64,000 bases of DNA from an uncultured Thermoleophilia bacterium (lineage in GTDB: Bacteria > Actinomycetota > Thermoleophilia > UBA2241): NCBI GenBank assembly GCA_963702475.1, contig CAVPCT010000005.1, forward strand, positions 256,001 through 320,000. Reading direction: 5' to 3'. The number at the start of each line of letters is the position of its first letter. The stretch's first letter is position 1. Positions 1 through 7,176 of this stretch are shown piece by piece. A program made the position numbers and the translations under genes. The notes below the pieces were generated by a model, which was given only the letters and a program-made list of their open reading frames with translations, searched no databases and was not told where the DNA came from.

Positions 1-7
1 GGCGTGC

Positions 8-1627
8 GTGCTCGTCGCGCTTCTCACGCTACCCTCCACGGCGCTCGCCGACGGTGAGCCGGCAAGAAAGGTCGACACCAGCGTCCAGACGGTGCTGGAG
101 GCCACGGGTGGCAAGACGGCCATCCCGGTCATGGTCGAGGCCCCGGGCGCGCTCGACCAGGTCAAGGCGACCATCCCCCTCGGCGTCGCGATCACCGACA
201 TCCCCCTTGTCGACGGCCTCGCCGCGTGCCTGACCCCCGACGAGATCAAGTCCCTGGGCAGCGCCGGCTTCGTGACGTACATCGTCGCCGACAACCTGGT
301 GCATGGCCTGACCTACCAGAGCACCATGGACATCACCAACCTCACCATCGGGCTGGGTGATGTCCCGTCGCCTGCCGACGACGGCCCAGACGGCGCCGGG
401 GCGACCGTGGCGATCATCGACACCGGCATCGCCACCACCAGCGACCTGGGCGCGAGCCGTATCGTCGGCTGGAAGGACTTCGTCAACGGCGAGGCCGCCC
501 CGTACGACGACGCCGGGCACGGTACCTTCGTCGCCGGCCTCATCGCCGGCGACGGCAGCGCTTCACTGCCGCTCGAGAACGGCGGCACGGCCAGAGTGCA
601 GTTCCGCGGCGTCGCTCCGGCCGCGAACGTCGTCGGCATCAAGGTCCTCGACGAAGTCGGCCAGGGTCGCAGTTCGGCCCTCATCGCAGGTATCGCGTGG
701 GCCATCACCCACAAGGACGAGTACGGCATCCGCGTCATGAACATCTCCATCGGCGGCAACCCCGTCTCCTCGGTGACCAAGGACCCCGTCGCTCGAGCGG
801 TCGAGGCAGCGTGGCGCAGCGGCATCACCGTGGTGTGTGCTGCAGGCAACGAGGGTGAGTTCGGCCCCGGCAGCATCCTGTCGCCCGGCAACGACCCGTT
901 CGTGATCACCGTCGGCGCCGACGACACCATGCTGACCGCAGAGACCGGCGACGACCGCATCGCCGCCTACAGTTCGGTCGGTCCGACGCTGTTCGACGAG
1001 ATCGCCAAGCCAGACGTGATCGCCCCGGGCAGACGCCTGGAGTCGCTGCGCGCCCCCGGCTCCTTCCTCGACGTCAACTTCCCGGACAACATCGTCCCGC
1101 TGTCCAGTTACGACACGTCCCCGACGACCGGCGCCGAGTCCGCCTACCTCAGGCTGTCCGGCACCAGCGCTTCTGCGCCGGTGGTCGCCGGCGCTGCCGC
1201 CCTGATGATAGGAGAAGACTCCTCGCTGACCCCCGACGACGTCAAGGTCCGGTTGATGACGACCGCTGACCCGGTGGCAGGAGCCACGACCGCCCAGCAA
1301 GGCTTCGGCCTCATCGACGTCGACGAGGCGCTCGAGAGCACTGCCGTCGCCGACGGCTGGGCGCTCTCCGCGACGCTCGGTGACGGCAAGAAGACATTCA
1401 AGGCCGGGGACTACAACAAATGGGAGAAGCGTGCTTGGGAGAAGTATGGGTGGACCAAGTACAAGTGGACCAAGTACAAGTGGACCAAGTACAAGTGGAC
1501 CAAGTACAAGTGGACGGAAGTCGTCTGGACGAAGTACAAGTGGACCAAGATCGACTGGACCAAGTACAAGTGGACCGAGTACGACTGGGCTAAGTACAAG
1601 TGGACGATCCTGATCGAAGGTCAGTGA
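8..1627 (+). CDS. Secreted S8 (subtilisin/AprX-like) serine protease with C-terminal Trp pentapeptide repeats; the true start may lie left of the window
   Basis: Catalytic motifs AIIDTGI, GHGTFVAG, AAGN, SGTSASAPVVAG; hydrophobic signal-peptide end (LLTLPSTALA-D); prodomain-sized N-terminal segment; WxxxxW tail. Confidence 0.93.
   Translation: MLVALLTLPSTALADGEPARKVDTSVQTVLEATGGKTAIPVMVEAPGALDQVKATIPLGVAITDIPLVDGLAACLTPDEIKSLGSAGFVTYIVADNLVHGLTYQSTMDITNLTIGLGDVPSPADDGPDGAGATVAIIDTGIATTSDLGASRIVGWKDFVNGEAAPYDDAGHGTFVAGLIAGDGSASLPLENGGTARVQFRGVAPAANVVGIKVLDEVGQGRSSALIAGIAWAITHKDEYGIRVMNISIGGNPVSSVTKDPVARAVEAAWRSGITVVCAAGNEGEFGPGSILSPGNDPFVITVGADDTMLTAETGDDRIAAYSSVGPTLFDEIAKPDVIAPGRRLESLRAPGSFLDVNFPDNIVPLSSYDTSPTTGAESAYLRLSGTSASAPVVAGAAALMIGEDSSLTPDDVKVRLMTTADPVAGATTAQQGFGLIDVDEALESTAVADGWALSATLGDGKKTFKAGDYNKWEKRAWEKYGWTKYKWTKYKWTKYKWTKYKWTEVVWTKYKWTKIDWTKYKWTEYDWAKYKWTILIEGQ
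1421..1615 (+). repeat. Coding 15-bp tandem repeat (consensus TGGACCAAGTACAAG = WTKYK), 13 W-led units
   Basis: Units start at 1421, 1436, 1451 ... 1601; four perfect consecutive copies at 1451-1510. Confidence 0.97.
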
Positions 1628-3165
1628 CGACGATCCCGGCCACCCACCTCGACACCGAACACGAGACGGCCGTGCGGAAACGCACGGCCGTCTCTGTCTC
1701 TGTCTTCGTCGCACTCGTCTCCGTCGCGGCGGGCGCGGCTGTCCTTGCGGCGCTGCTCGACGACCCCGCCCCGCTCACGGTGGACATAGTCGCGTTCATC
1801 ATCCTCGCGACGGTGGCCGACCTCCGTGAGGTCAAGATGCCGCTGGTCGGGATCGTGACGCTCTCGTTCGTGCCGGTCCTCGCAGCGCTCCTCGTCCTCG
1901 GTCTCTGGCCGGCACTGTTGTGCGCGGCGGTGTCCGGACTGACCAGCGCGTGGTACATGCGAGACCCGGTGAAGATCGTCTTCAACGTGGCCAATTACGT
2001 CGTCTCGACATACCTGGCCGGGATCCTGTACCTCGCCCTGGCTCCTCCAGACGGGGCTTTCATGACGAAGGTGCTCCCCACGGTCGCGGCGACGGTCGTC
2101 GATTTCGCCGCCAACACGGTGCTCCTGGCAGTCGTGATCTCGCTCGCGACGCACGGCAATCCGATGGCCGTCTGGAGACAGAACTACCAGTGGGGCCTGC
2201 CCAGCTACCTTGCCGGCTCCACCCTGGCACTACTGCTGGCCGCGCTCTACCTGTGGCTCGGCGTACCCGGCATGCTCCTCGCCATCCCCCCGGCGTACCT
2301 CATCTACTACTCCTACGACATCTACATGAAGCGCGCGAAGGACCGGCTCACGTTCGACGCGGAACGTGACTCCTTCCACGCCGAACTCACCAAGTCGACG
2401 CAGCTGCACGATGAGCTCCGTGCGGCACAACTCAAGGTGGCTGCGGAGATCGAGCGCGCCAAACGCATCCAGACAGACCTCCTGCCCGCCCGCACCCCAG
2501 ACGTCGGAGGGCTCGCCCTCACGCAGCGGATCGAGTTCCTCGGTGAGATGGGCGGCGACTACTACGACTACATCCCCTTCCGCGACGGACGGCTGGGCCT
2601 CGTGTGTGGCGACGTGATGGGCAAGGGCCTCGCGGCAGCCCTCATCATGGCCATGGCGCGGTCCGTCCTGCACTCCGCGATCGGTCCGGGCAGGTCGCCC
2701 GGCGACGTCCTGGCCGAGGTGAACGACGCCCTGGCACGCGACCTGGAGGGCCAGCGCCTGCCGTACTTCCTCACCCTGGTGCTGGCCGTGTACGACCCGT
2801 CCACGCGCCACCTGTCGGTGGCCGGCGGCGGCCACAACCCTGTACTCGTCGTGTCGTCGAACGGCATCGAGCGCGTGCCCTCACGCGGCGCCGCGCTCGG
2901 TGTGCGCACCGGCCTGCAGTTCCCGGAGGACGACTTCGTCCTCGACCCCGGCGACACAGTCGCCCTGTACACCGACGGCATCACTGAGGCGCGTGACCCC
3001 GCCGGCGAGCTCCTCGGACAGCATCGCCTCGAGGCGATGCTGTCCGAGGCGGACACTGACTCGCTGGACGCCACCCTGGAGTCGGTCTGGGAGCGCGTGG
3101 CCGCCTACCGCGGAGGAGCGGCCGCGACCGACGACGCGACGCTCCTGCTGGCGCGCATGCGGTAG
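1624..3165 (+). CDS. Membrane-bound PP2C/SpoIIE (RsbU-like) Ser phosphatase with N-terminal multi-TM sensor and coiled coil
   Basis: About 7-8 hydrophobic helices in the first 240 aa; GGDYYD, GDVMGKG, LYTDGITEA, DDAT motifs; GTG start overlaps the protease TGA (GTGA at 1624-1627). Confidence 0.92.
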   Translation: MTTIPATHLDTEHETAVRKRTAVSVSVFVALVSVAAGAAVLAALLDDPAPLTVDIVAFIILATVADLREVKMPLVGIVTLSFVPVLAALLVLGLWPALLCAAVSGLTSAWYMRDPVKIVFNVANYVVSTYLAGILYLALAPPDGAFMTKVLPTVAATVVDFAANTVLLAVVISLATHGNPMAVWRQNYQWGLPSYLAGSTLALLLAALYLWLGVPGMLLAIPPAYLIYYSYDIYMKRAKDRLTFDAERDSFHAELTKSTQLHDELRAAQLKVAAEIERAKRIQTDLLPARTPDVGGLALTQRIEFLGEMGGDYYDYIPFRDGRLGLVCGDVMGKGLAAALIMAMARSVLHSAIGPGRSPGDVLAEVNDALARDLEGQRLPYFLTLVLAVYDPSTRHLSVAGGGHNPVLVVSSNGIERVPSRGAALGVRTGLQFPEDDFVLDPGDTVALYTDGITEARDPAGELLGQHRLEAMLSEADTDSLDATLESVWERVAAYRGGAAATDDATLLLARMR

Positions 3166-3200
3166 GCCGACCGGACGGCCGCCCTGCGCGCGGGCGGCAC

Positions 3201-5297
3201 TCAGCGTACGGTGAGCTCGGCCGACCCCACCTGCTTGGCGCGATTGCCGGCGATGTCGGTGGCCGTCACCCGCCACGTGTACACGCCTTTGGGCAGCGTC
3301 GCCTTGAAGCGGTACCTGAGACCGGTGTTCACGCGGCGAGCGCCCAGCCCGACGGTGCGGACCGTCGTCCCGTTGCGCCTCACCTGGATGGTGACGGTGG
3401 CGCTGCCGCAGGTCGGGGCCGCATCGTCGACGCGGTAGTGCAGCGTCACCATCTTGCCGGCCTTCACCGTCGCAGGGTCTGCAGTGGTCCGTGGGACAGA
3501 CGTGTCGATATTGACGTAGCCGGTGCACGTCGTCTCCGCGGCCCCGAGCACGTCGACCGACGACCACGCCACCGCATGGCTTCCCGCGCCCGACACCGTG
3601 AACGGCGCGCTGTAGGCTTCGGCCGCCGAGCCGTCGACGGAGTAGCTCGTGCTCGCGACGCCCGCCCCCTCATCCACGGCCTTGAGCGTCACGGTCAGTG
3701 GAGAGTTGCGCCAGCCGGTCGTGGGGCCCGCAGCAAGCGACGGACTGGCGGTCGTCACCGGAGGCGAGTCGTCGGTGTTCACGTAGGCGACGTGGCGGGT
3801 CTCCCGGTTGCCGGCCACGTCGACCGACCAGTAGACGACGGCGTGACTCCCTCCGCCGGCCACGGTGAACGGCGCCGTGTAGGTTGTCTCGGAGCCGCCG
3901 TCCACACTGTAGCGCGTCACGGACACACCCGAGAGATCGTCGCTGGCCGAGAGGCTGACCGCGCGCACGGTCGGGGCCCAGCCGCCTGTGGGACTGACCG
4001 CCAGCGGTGGTTCCGCGGTCGTCACTGGAGGCACGACGTCGATGTTCACGTAGCCGTTGCGCGGCGTCTCCTCGTTGCCCGAGGCGTCGACCGAGTGGTA
4101 GCCCACGCGGTGGCTGCCCGGAGCGGCGACGACGAACGGGATCAAGTACAGGGCGGGCTCCCCATCGTCGAGCGTGTAGTACGTGGCCGCGACAACCGAG
4201 CCGGCGTCGCCGGCCGACAGCGTCAAGGTCACAGCCGACGTGCGCCACCCTGAGGTGGGATCGCCCGCCAGCGCCGGACTGACGGTGGTCACGGGCGGCA
4301 GACCGTCGATGGAGAGTCTGCGGACGGTGTCGTTGCCCGTGTCGGCGACGTACACGTTCCCCGCAGCATCGCAGGTGACGCCTTGAGGACCGTCGAACCG
4401 CGCCTCTGACCCCGCGCCGTCGACGCTGCCGGACACGTCGACAGCGCCCGCCACGACAGCAGCCGAGCCGCCGCCCGCACAGCGCCGAATGCAGTCGTTG
4501 TCGGTATCCGCCACATAGACGGTGCCGGCGGCATCGCAGGCGACGCCGCCGGGATAGCTCAACGAGGACGCCCCGGCGATCTCCACGACGCTGCCGCCGG
4601 TGAGCTGGAGGACACGGCCGCCCCCTGTGTCCGTGACGTAGACGCTGCCGTCGGGTCCGCACGCCACACTCTGCGGCGAGTCCAGACCGACCTCTGGTCC
4701 TGCCACCGTGGTGACCCGACCGGACGGCGTCACTTTGCGCACCGCACCGTTGCCGACATCGGCCACGTAGACGTTGCCGTCCGCATCGCAGGCCAGGCCG
4801 GCGGGGTAGCTGAACCGTGCCGTGGCTCCGAGACCATCATCGGCCCCCTGCTCGGCGGCCGCGCCTGCGAGCGCGCTCAGTGACCCGCCCTCGATGATCC
4901 TGTAGATCACGTGGTTGTAGGTGTCCGAGACGTACACGGTGCCGGCGGCGTCGCAAGCGATCCCCTGCGGGTACGAGAGACCCGCCGAGGCTCCCACGAG
5001 TGTGCTCACCGTGCGGTCCGGCGTGATCCTGCGCACGGTGCCGTTGTCGGTGTCGGCGACGTAGACGGCGCCGGCCGCATCACAGGCAAGGGCGTAGGGG
5101 CTTCCGAACCTGGCCGCGGCGCCCACGCCGTCGGCGGTGCCGGCGACGCCTGCGGATCCAGCGAGCGTGGTGACGCTCACGCCGAGCCCCGATGCTGGGG
5201 AGCATACGGAAAGCGCCAGGCAGACGCATGCCGCCGGGACACCGAGGGCCAGAGCCAGCCATCGACCCGCCCGATGAGAAGACGACACCGTGTTCAC
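3201..5297 (-). CDS. Secreted NHL-repeat (beta-propeller) protein with C-terminal Ig-like/beta-sandwich repeats
   Basis: Repeated P-x-G-x-ACDAAGxVYVAD blades; three PVTT...YSVD..GN.E modules; signal-like N-terminus; GGAGG RBS before GTG 5297. Confidence 0.85.
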   Translation of the reverse strand: MNTVSSSHRAGRWLALALGVPAACVCLALSVCSPASGLGVSVTTLAGSAGVAGTADGVGAAARFGSPYALACDAAGAVYVADTDNGTVRRITPDRTVSTLVGASAGLSYPQGIACDAAGTVYVSDTYNHVIYRIIEGGSLSALAGAAAEQGADDGLGATARFSYPAGLACDADGNVYVADVGNGAVRKVTPSGRVTTVAGPEVGLDSPQSVACGPDGSVYVTDTGGGRVLQLTGGSVVEIAGASSLSYPGGVACDAAGTVYVADTDNDCIRRCAGGGSAAVVAGAVDVSGSVDGAGSEARFDGPQGVTCDAAGNVYVADTGNDTVRRLSIDGLPPVTTVSPALAGDPTSGWRTSAVTLTLSAGDAGSVVAATYYTLDDGEPALYLIPFVVAAPGSHRVGYHSVDASGNEETPRNGYVNIDVVPPVTTAEPPLAVSPTGGWAPTVRAVSLSASDDLSGVSVTRYSVDGGSETTYTAPFTVAGGGSHAVVYWSVDVAGNRETRHVAYVNTDDSPPVTTASPSLAAGPTTGWRNSPLTVTLKAVDEGAGVASTSYSVDGSAAEAYSAPFTVSGAGSHAVAWSSVDVLGAAETTCTGYVNIDTSVPRTTADPATVKAGKMVTLHYRVDDAAPTCGSATVTIQVRRNGTTVRTVGLGARRVNTGLRYRFKATLPKGVYTWRVTATDIAGNRAKQVGSAELTVR

Positions 5298-5387
5298 GGG
5301 AACACCTCCCCGGTCCGTGCACGAGAGGGCCGGCACCCATGGGGGGCGATGCCGGACCCGCGACACCTGCGAAGCGCCCCTCCACTG

Positions 5388-5416
5388 CTATCGGCACCTC
5401 GGGCGCACGCGCTTAG
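5388..5416 (-). promoter_or_regulatory. Sigma-28 (FliA/WhiG)-like promoter upstream of the NHL gene
   Basis: Minus strand TAAG-N16-GCCGATAG versus consensus TAAA-N15-GCCGATAA. Confidence 0.4.
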
Positions 5417-5507
5417 GAATCCGCGAGTCCGGAGGCCCACGGGGCGCCGTCTTGTCTGAGACGCTGCGACGCGAGAGTATCTAGGCGACCCCCGATGAAA
5501 GGTCGCC

Positions 5508-6284
5508 ATGCCCGACCCCACAGTCGAAGCGCCCGCCAAGCTCCAGGTCTTCCGCTACCGGCCGTCCAACGGCCGCATCCACGCGGTCATCGGGGAACTG
5601 GACGAGGGCCTCCGTCGGACGGACCTCATCGCCTATGCGTCTGACGCGCTCGAGAGCGAGACGTTCGTGTGCCACGCCGTGGCGAACGACGACGAGAACG
5701 TGGCGGACGAGCTGTGCTTCGTCCCTCAGGGCGACCACTGCGACATCCTCAGCATGCGCACGAGCGGCTGGAAGCGCTACCACGGCGACCACCGGCGCAG
5801 CCTCGTCGAGATCCTCAACACGCTGGCCGCGGCGGTCGCCTGCGGCAGGCTCAGGATCCTGGATGAGGAAGAGCGCAAAGCCGAGGTGGCGCGGGGTGAC
5901 GTGCTGCGCAAGATCGAGATCGTCGACAGCGGCGCGCTCGCCCAGGCCCGTGACGCCGTGCAGCAGGCGCTCGAGCTCCTCGGCATCGACGCCTTCACCG
6001 TCCAGCGCACCACGCTCTGCGTCTCGGAGGCGCTCACCAACATCCTCATCCACGGCGGCGGCCGCGGGGCGATGACCCTGCGCCGCCTCCCCGGCCGCCT
6101 GCGCATCGTCGTCGCCGACGCAGGACCCGGCCTCAACTTCCTGAACTGGATAGAACCACCACACGTGGGCGGGCAGGCCTCCATGGGGTATGGCTTCAAG
6201 ATCATCCTCGACAACCTCGACGCGGTCGCACTGCACACCGGCCCCGACGGCACCACGCTGGTGCTCGACCGCGTCATAGACTAG
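5508..6284 (+). CDS. Anti-sigma factor/Ser kinase (RsbW-like HATPase_c) with an uncharacterised ~130-aa N-terminal domain
   Basis: VSEALTNILIHG (N box), DAGPG (G1), GYGFKII (G2); followed by a STAS gene. Confidence 0.85.
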   Translation: MPDPTVEAPAKLQVFRYRPSNGRIHAVIGELDEGLRRTDLIAYASDALESETFVCHAVANDDENVADELCFVPQGDHCDILSMRTSGWKRYHGDHRRSLVEILNTLAAAVACGRLRILDEEERKAEVARGDVLRKIEIVDSGALAQARDAVQQALELLGIDAFTVQRTTLCVSEALTNILIHGGGRGAMTLRRLPGRLRIVVADAGPGLNFLNWIEPPHVGGQASMGYGFKIILDNLDAVALHTGPDGTTLVLDRVID

Positions 6285-6296
6285 GCAGGGACGAGC

Positions 6297-6608
6297 ATGC
6301 TCCGCACATCTGTGACCCAGGGCCCCGCGCCCACGGTGTTCCTTACCGGAGAGATGGACCTGGACTGCGCCGACGTCCTCCGCGAGGCAGTCGCGGAGGC
6401 GACTCGCGGCGCCGAGACGGTGGTGCTGGACTTCTCCGGTGTGTCCTTCATCGACTCGTCCGGGACCGGCATCTTCGTGCGGCTGTGCCTCGACCTGAAG
6501 AGCCAGGGCACGCCCCTGGTGGCGCGCAACCTCACGCCGGCGGTGCGCGGCGTGTTCGACATGCTCCGTGTGCGCGACCTCGTCGGCGAAGAGGTGTTCC
6601 CCGACTGA
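6297..6608 (+). CDS. STAS-domain anti-sigma factor antagonist (RsbV/SpoIIAA-like)
   Basis: GEMDL...VVLDFSGVSFIDSSG with the phosphoacceptor Ser motif. Confidence 0.92.
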   Translation: MLRTSVTQGPAPTVFLTGEMDLDCADVLREAVAEATRGAETVVLDFSGVSFIDSSGTGIFVRLCLDLKSQGTPLVARNLTPAVRGVFDMLRVRDLVGEEVFPD

Positions 6609-6687: not shown

Positions 6688-7008
6688 TCAGTCGTTGTGA
6701 AGCGGGCCGACCCCGGCGAGGACGACGAGCGTGGCCAAGTCGCCGTCGACCGACACGCTCGACACACACGCCTCGCCCTGGTAGCAGCGGCCGTCACGGG
6801 TGACGATGGAGAGCGACATGGACGAGCCGTGGTGGAGGTGGTCGAGGTACTCCTGCACCTCCTGGGGAGACTCGACCCGCAGCGTCCAGCACGCCCCGGC
6901 GTCGCTCACGATACGCGCGTTCAGGAAGCCCATCTCACGATGGTCGTGTCGCAGCTTGAGCAATCGTGCCTGAGGCATGTCCACGCCGGCCCCTGTGTTC
7001 AGGATCAT
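6688..7008 (-). CDS. Hypothetical beta-rich protein (~106 aa)
   Basis: Protein-like ORF from ATG 7008 with a purine-rich upstream tract; the longer ORF call runs into the tRNA. Confidence 0.6.
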   Translation of the reverse strand: MILNTGAGVDMPQARLLKLRHDHREMGFLNARIVSDAGACWTLRVESPQEVQEYLDHLHHGSSMSLSIVTRDGRCYQGEACVSSVSVDGDLATLVVLAGVGPLHND

Positions 7009-7063
7009 CCTCTGTCTCACACCATACCCCCGGCGTGTGGCCGATAGACGGCCGGAGACACGA

Positions 7064-7087
7064 AGACCGGCCCCGAAGGACCGGTCT
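7064..7087 (-). terminator. Hairpin downstream of tRNA-Phe
   Basis: AGACCGGCCC-CGAA-GGACCGGTCT inverted repeat with one mismatch. Confidence 0.5.
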
Positions 7088-7100
7088 GGCGGGCGAAGAC

Positions 7101-7176
7101 TGGTGGCGAGGGTCAGAATTGAACTGACGACACCGCGATTTTCAGTCGCGTGCTCTACCAACTGAGCTACCTCGCC
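7101..7176 (-). tRNA. tRNA-Phe (GAA)
   Basis: Reverse complement GGCGAGGTAGCTCAGTTGGTAGAGCACGCGACTGAAAATCGCGGTGTCGTCAGTTCAATTCTGACCCTCGCCACCA; cloverleaf with encoded CCA. Confidence 0.97.

Follow-up and report, generated by a model that had tools for sequence, protein, structure and literature searches.

A conserved pairing of Trp-period-tailed subtilase genes with MASE9-like membrane sensor genes in Actinomycetota and its possible role as a signal input module

The stretch of DNA analysed here (the window; 64,000 nt, positions 256,001-320,000 of the forward strand of contig CAVPCT010000005.1, assembly GCA_963702475.1, from an uncultured Thermoleophilia bacterium) opens with a gene for an S8 subtilase that ends in an array of regularly spaced Trp residues, and the stop codon of this gene overlaps the start codon of a gene for a membrane PP2C phosphatase. 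Pairs of a W-tailed S8 gene and a gene for a homologous transmembrane (TM) sensor domain were found throughout the window's own family and in other clades of the phylum, the TM domain being joined to different signalling outputs in different clades. Based on this conservation, the protease and the TM sensor are very probably coupled in function. The reading proposed here, to which a probability of about one-half is given, is that a two-gene input module is widespread among actinobacteria and that the window carries its version with PP2C as output. Likewise, it is an evenly balanced proposition that the Trp array is the element which the TM domain reads.

The left edge of the window cuts the S8 open reading frame (ORF); the full ORF (L003:11963-13627) starts with GTG and encodes 554 aa. 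A preliminary description of this DNA, made from the letters alone, had claimed an intact S8 protease with a 13-unit Trp tail, and both parts of the claim hold. Pfam PF00082 (Peptidase_S8) matched the protein with an E-value of 4.1e-45, the catalytic residues D153, H186, N296, and S402 are invariant among 120 homologues, with the S8 order of the triad and the oxyanion Asn present, and the catalytic domain was confidently modelled by AlphaFold2 (AF2) from 120 sequences. The N-terminus is basic-hydrophobic and resembles a signal peptide, suggesting that the subtilase may be exported by a Sec-type route. The last 68 residues contain 13 Trp at a spacing of exactly five residues, and the units are, in order, WEKRA, WEKYG, WTKYK (four times), WTEVV, WTKYK, WTKID, WTKYK, WTEYD, WAKYK, and the terminal WTILIEGQ; five of the six WTKYK units are identical in DNA. 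Because the 79-aa tail matched no Pfam family at E<=1, and residues 496-554 have a confidence score (pLDDT) below 35 in the AF2 model and form no strands there, the array is most reasonably regarded as an unfolded C-terminal tail. The best NCBIfam match of the S8 domain is the mycosin family TIGR03921, with which the protein would share the character of an exported actinobacterial subtilase; however, the score (135.8 bits) is below the cut-off of 278.75, the C-terminus carries the Trp array instead of a hydrophobic helix serving as TM anchor, and no ESX genes were seen in the neighbourhood.

The TGA stop codon of the S8 gene (1625-1627) overlaps the GTG start codon of the second gene (1624-1626) to form GTGA, as given in the preliminary description; a second possible start is the in-frame GTG at 1600. 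The second gene had been described as a SpoIIE/PP2C phosphatase with about seven or eight TM helices, which agrees with the present analysis: its C-terminal part matched PF07228 with an E-value of 1.6e-51 over profile positions 2-191 of 192, the translation contains the motifs GDYYD, GDVMGKG, TDGITEA, and DDATLL including the metal-binding Asp residues, and residues 61-237 matched PF20972 (MASE9) above the gathering score (28.1 bits against 24.3; E 2.3e-6). As modelled by AF2 (pLDDT 87), the TM domain has eight helices, at residues 10-46, 53-67, 82-92, 94-109, 115-139, 146-176, 180-212, and 214-269. Across positions 1440-1627 the +2 frame, which is the frame of the PP2C start, is open throughout the array; its translation there is (VDQVQ)n and each unit contains a GTG, so that gene callers can set the start of the sensor far upstream. 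Several public homologues (P0127, P0160, P0194) seem to have false N-termini of such origin.

A scan with one genome per species yielded 80 loci, of which 56 represent the window's family and are nearly all labelled as metagenome-assembled genomes (MAGs) of Thermoleophilia or Actinomycetota. Seven of the 56 stop before the next gene, and the downstream counts rest on the other 49. Wherever enough DNA was available, the S8 gene is followed by genes for the PP2C phosphatase (49/49), an RsbW-like kinase (47/47), and a STAS protein (45/45), and its stop codon overlaps a GTG or ATG start (GTGA or ATGA) in 42 of 48 loci. The codons for the conserved terminal Glu-Gly-Gln read GA(A/G)GGNCAGTGA, that is, a Shine-Dalgarno-like GAAGG or GAGGG together with the start codon, and a part of the conserved end of the tail thus serves translational coupling. 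When 8000 candidates were scored as homologues of the window's protease, a total of 1625 relatives were obtained at E<=1e-10, and the Trp array is present in 120 of 120 relatives among the matches listed. Given this and the gene order kept in the family, the arrangement in the window is no product of chance. The repeat unit is uniform within each protein and variable among proteins (WTKYK, WTKFK, WTKFR, WTKYR, WTKYA, WTKFQ, WTNYR, and WAKFK). At one locus (L040, 830-2344) the array is reduced to two or three Trp (…VKWDKYAWTILIDGQ), and the PP2C, kinase, and STAS genes are kept. More distant S8 proteases with another Trp repeat (…ENIIWGT…, period of about 9-10) were noted in two Vicinamibacterales MAGs (L058, L071); no relative of the PP2C, kinase, or STAS protein was found at these two loci.

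W-tailed S8 proteases are not confined to this family. A phmmer (HMMER) search with the 79-aa tail as query against 1.84 billion representative sequences gave 300 matches at E<=1e-3, and at least six pairs of Trp spaced by five residues are present in 135 of 150 among the matches listed. Many of these matches are probably spurious short translations of WTELN type, which resemble translated eukaryotic simple repeats and are unrelated to the bacterial module; another match (P0256), an adhesion-type G protein-coupled receptor of 1154 aa (GPS plus 7tm_2) with 93 consecutive WNGQV-like units, is likewise unrelated. Among 28 long matches scanned, 16 contain Peptidase_S8, with the units WTGVR, WAAHR, WTGNS, WTSAS, WTGVS, WDGIS, WASVR, WNALR, and others; a look-up of clusters of W-tailed S8 proteins outside the window's family gave the name 'serine protease AprX' or no name, with Actinomycetota as the commonest source. 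In addition, 401 sampled genomes of the phylum were scanned for a DNA pattern of eight TGG codons spaced by 15 nt, and 95 matched (87 of 393 after exclusion of eight unpublished genomes, on which no other result depends); a reversed-pattern control matched few genomes. The matches are concentrated by family (f18, 20/21; f9, 20/26; f14, 11/21). Outside the phylum, no match was found in a check of four single genomes, one each of Chloroflexia, Lachnospiraceae, Vicinamibacterales, and a 'delta proteobacterium'. The pattern was found in none of the 31 sampled genomes of the class to which the window's genome (G000) is assigned and not in the one genome of its genus (1.8 Mb against 4.3 Mb for G000). 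The close relatives of the locus are labelled Thermoleophilia and the bin has 6.5% contamination, and either the placement of the bin or the membership of the contig in it may be off.

All six-frame ORFs of 29 regions and of the short loci from the pattern scan were scored with two profile hidden Markov models (HMMs), one for S8 made from the window's family only and one for the TM domain. This identified 34 distinct S8 genes with a W tail that do not belong to the window's family, with units including WAARQ, WSGTS, WHGNS, and WDGMS. Wherever the region is present, each of the 34 proteins retains the catalytic D/H/N/S residues. The array, which ranges from 9 to 38 units, is C-terminal in every case, and no more than 24 readable residues follow its last spaced Trp (in L119 this part is partly X). 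In 31 of the 34, a TM domain on the same strand starts between -19 and +204 nt from the end of the S8 ORF, and for 16 of these 31 the detection does not depend on sequences from which the HMM had been made. The junctions are mostly overlaps of 4 nt or gaps of 3-16 nt, with gaps of 55-183 nt in three. The preliminary description had mentioned S8 proteases with other Wxxxx tails beside similar membrane sensors, and their existence was confirmed in the other clades; the linkage that it proposed to examine was found at every family locus with a following gene and at more than nine-tenths of those elsewhere. One region (L165; G033:C21:1-9900) carries tandem W-tailed S8 genes, both with WSGAG units, before a single GAF histidine kinase gene.

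The downstream TM domains of the two sets are homologous. An alignment of the first 270 residues of 39 PP2C-family sequences (A3) was compared by hhalign with an alignment of the first 280 residues of 15 downstream proteins of the other clades (A4), giving a probability of 98.2% and an E-value of 6.2e-14 over 218 columns, and a K..FN motif is common to both. The outputs differ, as the preliminary description had predicted for a shared input domain: among 25 full-length partners of the other clades, ten are PAS-histidine kinases (PAS-HK), eight are GAF-HK, and seven are GGDEF-EAL proteins, in addition to the PP2C of the window. The Pfam MASE9 model detects three of these 25 sensors at the E-values used and the rest are tied in by profile comparison, and the domain is therefore named MASE9-like. 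MASE9 has been described as an integral-membrane sensor of eight helices with short outside segments and several output domains, and the accessible part of that paper lists the outputs HD-GYP, HD-GYP-GAF-GGDEF, and GGDEF-EAL and names no ligand or partner protein (10.1101/2021.11.05.467447). The TM domain of the window likewise has about eight helices and short outside segments and stands N-terminal to signalling outputs, but compared with that part of the description the outputs here are PP2C, PAS-HK, GAF-HK, and GGDEF-EAL, and a conserved S8 partner gene is added.

The repeat unit follows the clade of the receptor. A tree built from 32 TM domains shows five groups, namely one clade of PP2C proteins, three of PAS-HK proteins, and one in which GAF-HK and GGDEF-EAL proteins are mixed. 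The tree of the corresponding S8 catalytic domains contains the same five groups, each on one branch with a support of 97-100, in agreement with the co-variation anticipated in the preliminary description. The units are W[AS]AR[QR] and WDGR[VI] with PAS-HK clade I, WHG[AN][NS] with clade II, W[KDA][AG][SA]T with clade III, WS followed by three small residues with the GAF clade, and WTK[FY]x with the PP2C clade. Five genomes (G084, G140, G033, G134, and G303) carry two or three pairs each, from different clades and with distinct repeat units. At all four loci of PAS-HK clade I tested (L114, L117, L119, and L121), the gene directly upstream of S8 encodes a single-domain response regulator; the order is thus REC, S8, HK, with the protease gene between the two genes of a two-component system; genes for IMPDH-like and GMP-synthase proteins flank the unit at these loci. 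In a reverse test, the TM-domain profile found 17 genes in five genomes, of which 11 have a W-tailed S8 gene directly upstream, one is a weak match beside an array-less S8 gene, and five have no S8 gene within about 1.4 kb. The protease is thus nearly always accompanied by the sensor, and the sensor is not always accompanied by the protease.

When the TM-domain model was compared with 48,161 chains by VIA-align, the top 15 rows were all S components of energy-coupling factor (ECF) transporters, with Z-scores of 8.5-13.8. The best was RibU (5kbw_A; Z 13.8, root mean square deviation 2.9 A, 160 of 170 residues), followed by NikM, ThiT, PanT, FolT, BioY, and BtuM, and the next unrelated chain had Z 7.4. 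Foldseek also ranked S components best, yet at E 2.6e-3 or weaker, with nothing at E<=1e-3. The modelled core (window 1624-2433) would consist of the six-helix S-component-like fold with one extra helix on each side, and it aligns over nearly the whole length of S components such as RibU, ThiT, FolT, BioY, PanT, and NikM/CbiM. The domain differs from them in its identity of 8-16%, in the extra N- and C-terminal helices, in its fusion to signalling outputs, and in the predicted orientation. By counting of Lys and Arg, the N-terminus, the L1-equivalent loop, the loops at 110-114 and 177-188, and the C-terminus are all placed inside, and the S-component-like core would thus be inverted relative to real S components. 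The S-component arrangement, N-terminus in and L1 lid outside, was not found in this prediction, and neither EcfT/EcfA nor other ECF genes were seen beside the TM-domain genes. The modelled fold suggests a membrane-embedded module for a small ligand, and the side on which the ligand would bind is not told by the fold. Co-folding of the TM domain (A3) with tail residues 476-554 gave a score of 0.00, which weighs neither way.

Table 1. Positions in the window of the genes and domains discussed
Feature	Position	Strand	Remarks
S8 subtilase gene	1..1627 (true start 38 nt before the left edge)	+	Signal-peptide-like N-terminus, pro-region, catalytic domain, Trp array
C-terminal Trp array	1421..1624	+	13 units, six of them WTKYK; end WTILIEGQ
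Membrane PP2C phosphatase gene	1624..3165	+	513 aa; GTG start overlaps the S8 stop
MASE9-like 8-helix TM sensor domain	1624..2328	+	PF20972, AF2, hhalign; ECF S-component-like fold
SpoIIE/PP2C catalytic domain	2584..3159	+	PF07228
NHL-repeat/OmpL47-type barrel/Big_13 surface protein	3201..5366	-	Outside the conserved cassette
RsbW-like serine kinase	5508..6284	+	HATPase_c_2 at aa 142-253, E 2.1e-12
STAS anti-sigma-antagonist-type protein	6297..6608	+	PF01740 4.2e-15, PF13466 2.7e-15

The kinase and STAS genes, which the preliminary description had placed on the same strand past one inverted gene, were likewise recovered there by their domain matches (Table 1). The motifs EALTNILIHG and DAGPG were seen in the translation of the kinase, whose conserved N-terminal extension of 130 aa matched no family, and the STAS protein carries a FIDSSG serine motif and scores 51.1 against TIGR00377, slightly under the cut-off of 53.45. 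The content is that of a partner switch, with an HATPase_c_2 kinase and a STAS protein having a Ser of the phosphorylatable type, and the curated NCBIfam equivalog cut-offs were not reached. Known partner-switching modules are SpoIIE-SpoIIAA-SpoIIAB, RsbU/RsbP-RsbV-RsbW, and SiaABCD. The cassette of the window is similar to these in its PP2C, HATPase_c_2 kinase, and STAS protein with a DSSG-type serine, but is different with respect to its input, a MASE9-like domain together with an exported-looking protease, to the extra N-terminal domain of the kinase, and to the lack of a target gene in the conserved cassette. No gene for a sigma factor or other target was seen within the conserved cassette (the genome beyond the cassette was not searched), and control of a SigB/SigF-type sigma factor by this switch is assumed.

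Under the proposed mechanism, the first gene would provide a Sec-exported, intact S8 subtilase with an unfolded C-terminal array in which only Trp at every fifth residue is constant, and the second gene, translationally coupled to the first, would provide the conserved MASE9-like domain of eight TM helices with a cytoplasmic output that depends on the clade. The exported protease and its array would together serve as a dedicated outside input for a sensor that has almost no outside loops. The array would sit at or in the membrane interface, and the TM domain would read it either tethered or after the protease has trimmed it to Trp-containing peptides. In the window, this signal would set the activity of the SpoIIE-type PP2C domain, which would dephosphorylate the STAS protein; the free STAS protein would then bind the RsbW-like kinase and release the target of the kinase, whose gene would lie outside the cassette.

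A number of observations weigh against this reading. The outside loops predicted for the TM domain are only about 2-12 residues long and acidic, and the inverted orientation of the modelled S-component-like core would turn its canonical pocket toward the cytoplasm. The locus that keeps the pair with two or three Trp indicates that a long array is not essential, and six of the 17 TM-domain genes in the reverse test lack a W-tailed S8 gene upstream, which indicates that the domain can work alone. The sensor is not directly downstream of three of the 34 W-tailed S8 genes of other clades, one being a fragment at a contig edge (L087), one being followed by a gene for a CHRD protein (L130), and one being the first of a tandem S8 pair, the second of which has the sensor. 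Congruent trees would also result from plain linkage of neighbouring genes, and the independent units number about five old clades instead of 80 loci. Within the window's family, a radical SAM/SPASM gene (45 of 49 loci) and a cell-wall amidase gene are also syntenic upstream of the S8 gene, and synteny by itself is therefore weak evidence there. Finally, binding of the array by the TM domain and cleavage of the array are steps that we infer.

Among the other explanations, one is that the subtilase cuts its own array, for example after each Trp, into many copies of one pentapeptide, which diffuse and act on the TM sensor as an autoinducer specific to the species or paralogue, a possibility that we regard as unlikely. 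The system would then be one of quorum sensing in which a single polypeptide is both the precursor and the enzyme that processes it, which is similarly doubtful. The units are homogeneous within each protein (identical DNA) and differ among clades and among paralogues of the same genome; Trp alone is constant, as expected of a P1 or recognition residue; the array is terminal and appears unfolded beside an intact protease; and the pair with very few units (L040) fits a ligand better than a tether. However, repeats like WSGTS, WSGST, WSGSS, and WSSSS contain little that could be recognised specifically, slippage or gene conversion would also homogenise repeats without selection, and the TM domain has almost no predicted outside surface. 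The Agr system (AgrBDCA) comprises a separate small peptide, AgrD, and a membrane peptidase, AgrB, and its signal is a thiolactone. The pair described here resembles Agr in that a candidate signal gene lies directly upstream of the gene for a polytopic membrane sensor with small loops and both diverge together into groups, but differs in that a soluble S8 protease carries the candidate signal as an array and the outputs extend beyond histidine kinases. A precedent for the processing step is given by the Rap-Phr/RRNPPA systems, in which extracellular proteases mature short secreted oligopeptides of Phr type and some propeptides contain several pheromones in tandem copies (PMC11343458). The receptors of those systems are cytoplasmic and the propeptides are small separate proteins, known from Bacillota and from phages of Bacillota; in the present pair, a protease is itself fused to as many as 38 repeat units, and a membrane domain is the candidate receptor. 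In the boldest form of this explanation, which is speculative to about the same degree, these subtilases would be self-contained pheromone factories carrying up to about 40 copies each of a Trp-pentapeptide that they release outside the cell and that is read by the S-component-like MASE9 domain, and different lineages would have wired the domain to a partner switch, to two-component kinases, or to cyclic di-GMP turnover, leaving room, just as tentatively, for several orthogonal channels per cell. If true, MASE9-type domains would gain their first class of ligand, and bacterial peptide signals a new route of production.

A second explanation, also improbable in our estimate and to a similar extent, is that the array serves only to keep the protease at the cell wall or membrane interface without contact with the TM domain, and that the sensor detects something else, for example products of the protease or the state of the envelope, the operon being shared as one response. 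Unfolded segments rich in Trp favour membrane interfaces, which speaks for such an anchor, as do the free variation among clades of the charge and of the other four positions of the unit, the wide range of array length (2 to 38 units), and the occurrence of the TM domain without an S8 gene. Left unexplained by it are the constant pairing with a single TM domain despite changing outputs, the tight translational coupling, and the distinct units of paralogous pairs.

A third explanation starts from the upstream neighbours. Just upstream of the window and divergent from the S8 gene lies the radical SAM/SPASM gene (L003:10016-11698, minus strand), which encodes an N-terminal extension of about 100 aa, and beyond it the gene for the Amidase_2 plus FlgD_ig cell-wall amidase (L003:7307-9577, minus strand). 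As in the formation of RiPPs, peptides made by the ribosome and modified after translation, the radical SAM enzyme could cross-link Trp and Lys of WTKYK before export, and the W-x-K spacing recalls known Trp-Lys cross-links; the enzyme gene is, moreover, present at most family loci. Nevertheless, we regard this as hardly tenable: the enzyme gene is missing at four loci that keep the array (L009, L014, L035, and L043), so that the two do not obligately co-occur; its NCBIfam matches are generic and far under the cut-offs (the best, NirJ2, 76.5 against 500); the neighbouring amidase is equally syntenic; at six loci of other clades the gene upstream of S8 encodes REC (four) or, on the opposite strand, an acetyl-CoA-synthetase-like protein or a methyltransferase (two); most units of other clades lack Lys; and the substrate would be a Sec protein of 554 aa. 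Lastly, a folded array in the form of a pentapeptide-repeat beta-helix serving as a binding domain, which the period of five and the possible placement of T and F/Y of WTK[FY]K at the i-2 and i consensus positions would allow, was rejected as very improbable, since only Trp is conserved in other clades, no Pfam pentapeptide family matched the tail at E<=1, and the low-confidence AF2 model is devoid of strands.

The inverted gene between the PP2C and kinase genes encodes a protein of 721 aa with three OmpL47-type barrel domains and one Big_13 domain. No gap of more than 600 nt between the PP2C and kinase genes was found among the related loci holding both, and the NHL gene is thus an insertion peculiar to the window; at two loci (L008, L031) an NHL relative is placed after the STAS gene instead. 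A small ORF convergent on the STAS gene (6688-7161, minus strand; about 100 aa) is kept in more than 30 related loci with 38-67% identity, and no Pfam or NCBIfam family matched it. The gene for tRNA-Phe (7101-7176, minus strand) overlaps the listed 5' part of this ORF, and the real start of the ORF is therefore probably further in.

The component families are already known, and the partner switch is ordinary in content. A full-text search of the literature, in which subscription journals were not covered, found no description of subtilases with a Trp-period tail or of an S8 or other protease partner of MASE9. Sensor domains of MASE type are common and mostly lack a known ligand or partner, and the MASE9-like domain described here has a specific, conserved, and translationally coupled protease partner with an unusual Trp-periodic tail. 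Of the genomes sampled from the phylum, about one in four has the W-tailed pair, which spans three kinds of signalling output, and some of the carriers are apparently organisms with complete genomes (those of L126, L128, and L133, with the GGDEF-EAL form). If the tail or peptides from it are the signal, signals would here be produced and sensed in a new way; otherwise, the pair would still represent a new class of sensor dependent on an accessory protein, and the array a new kind of protein tail. For the bacterium of the window, the protease and the MASE9-like domain would supply a concrete input for an otherwise orphan PP2C/RsbW/STAS partner switch.

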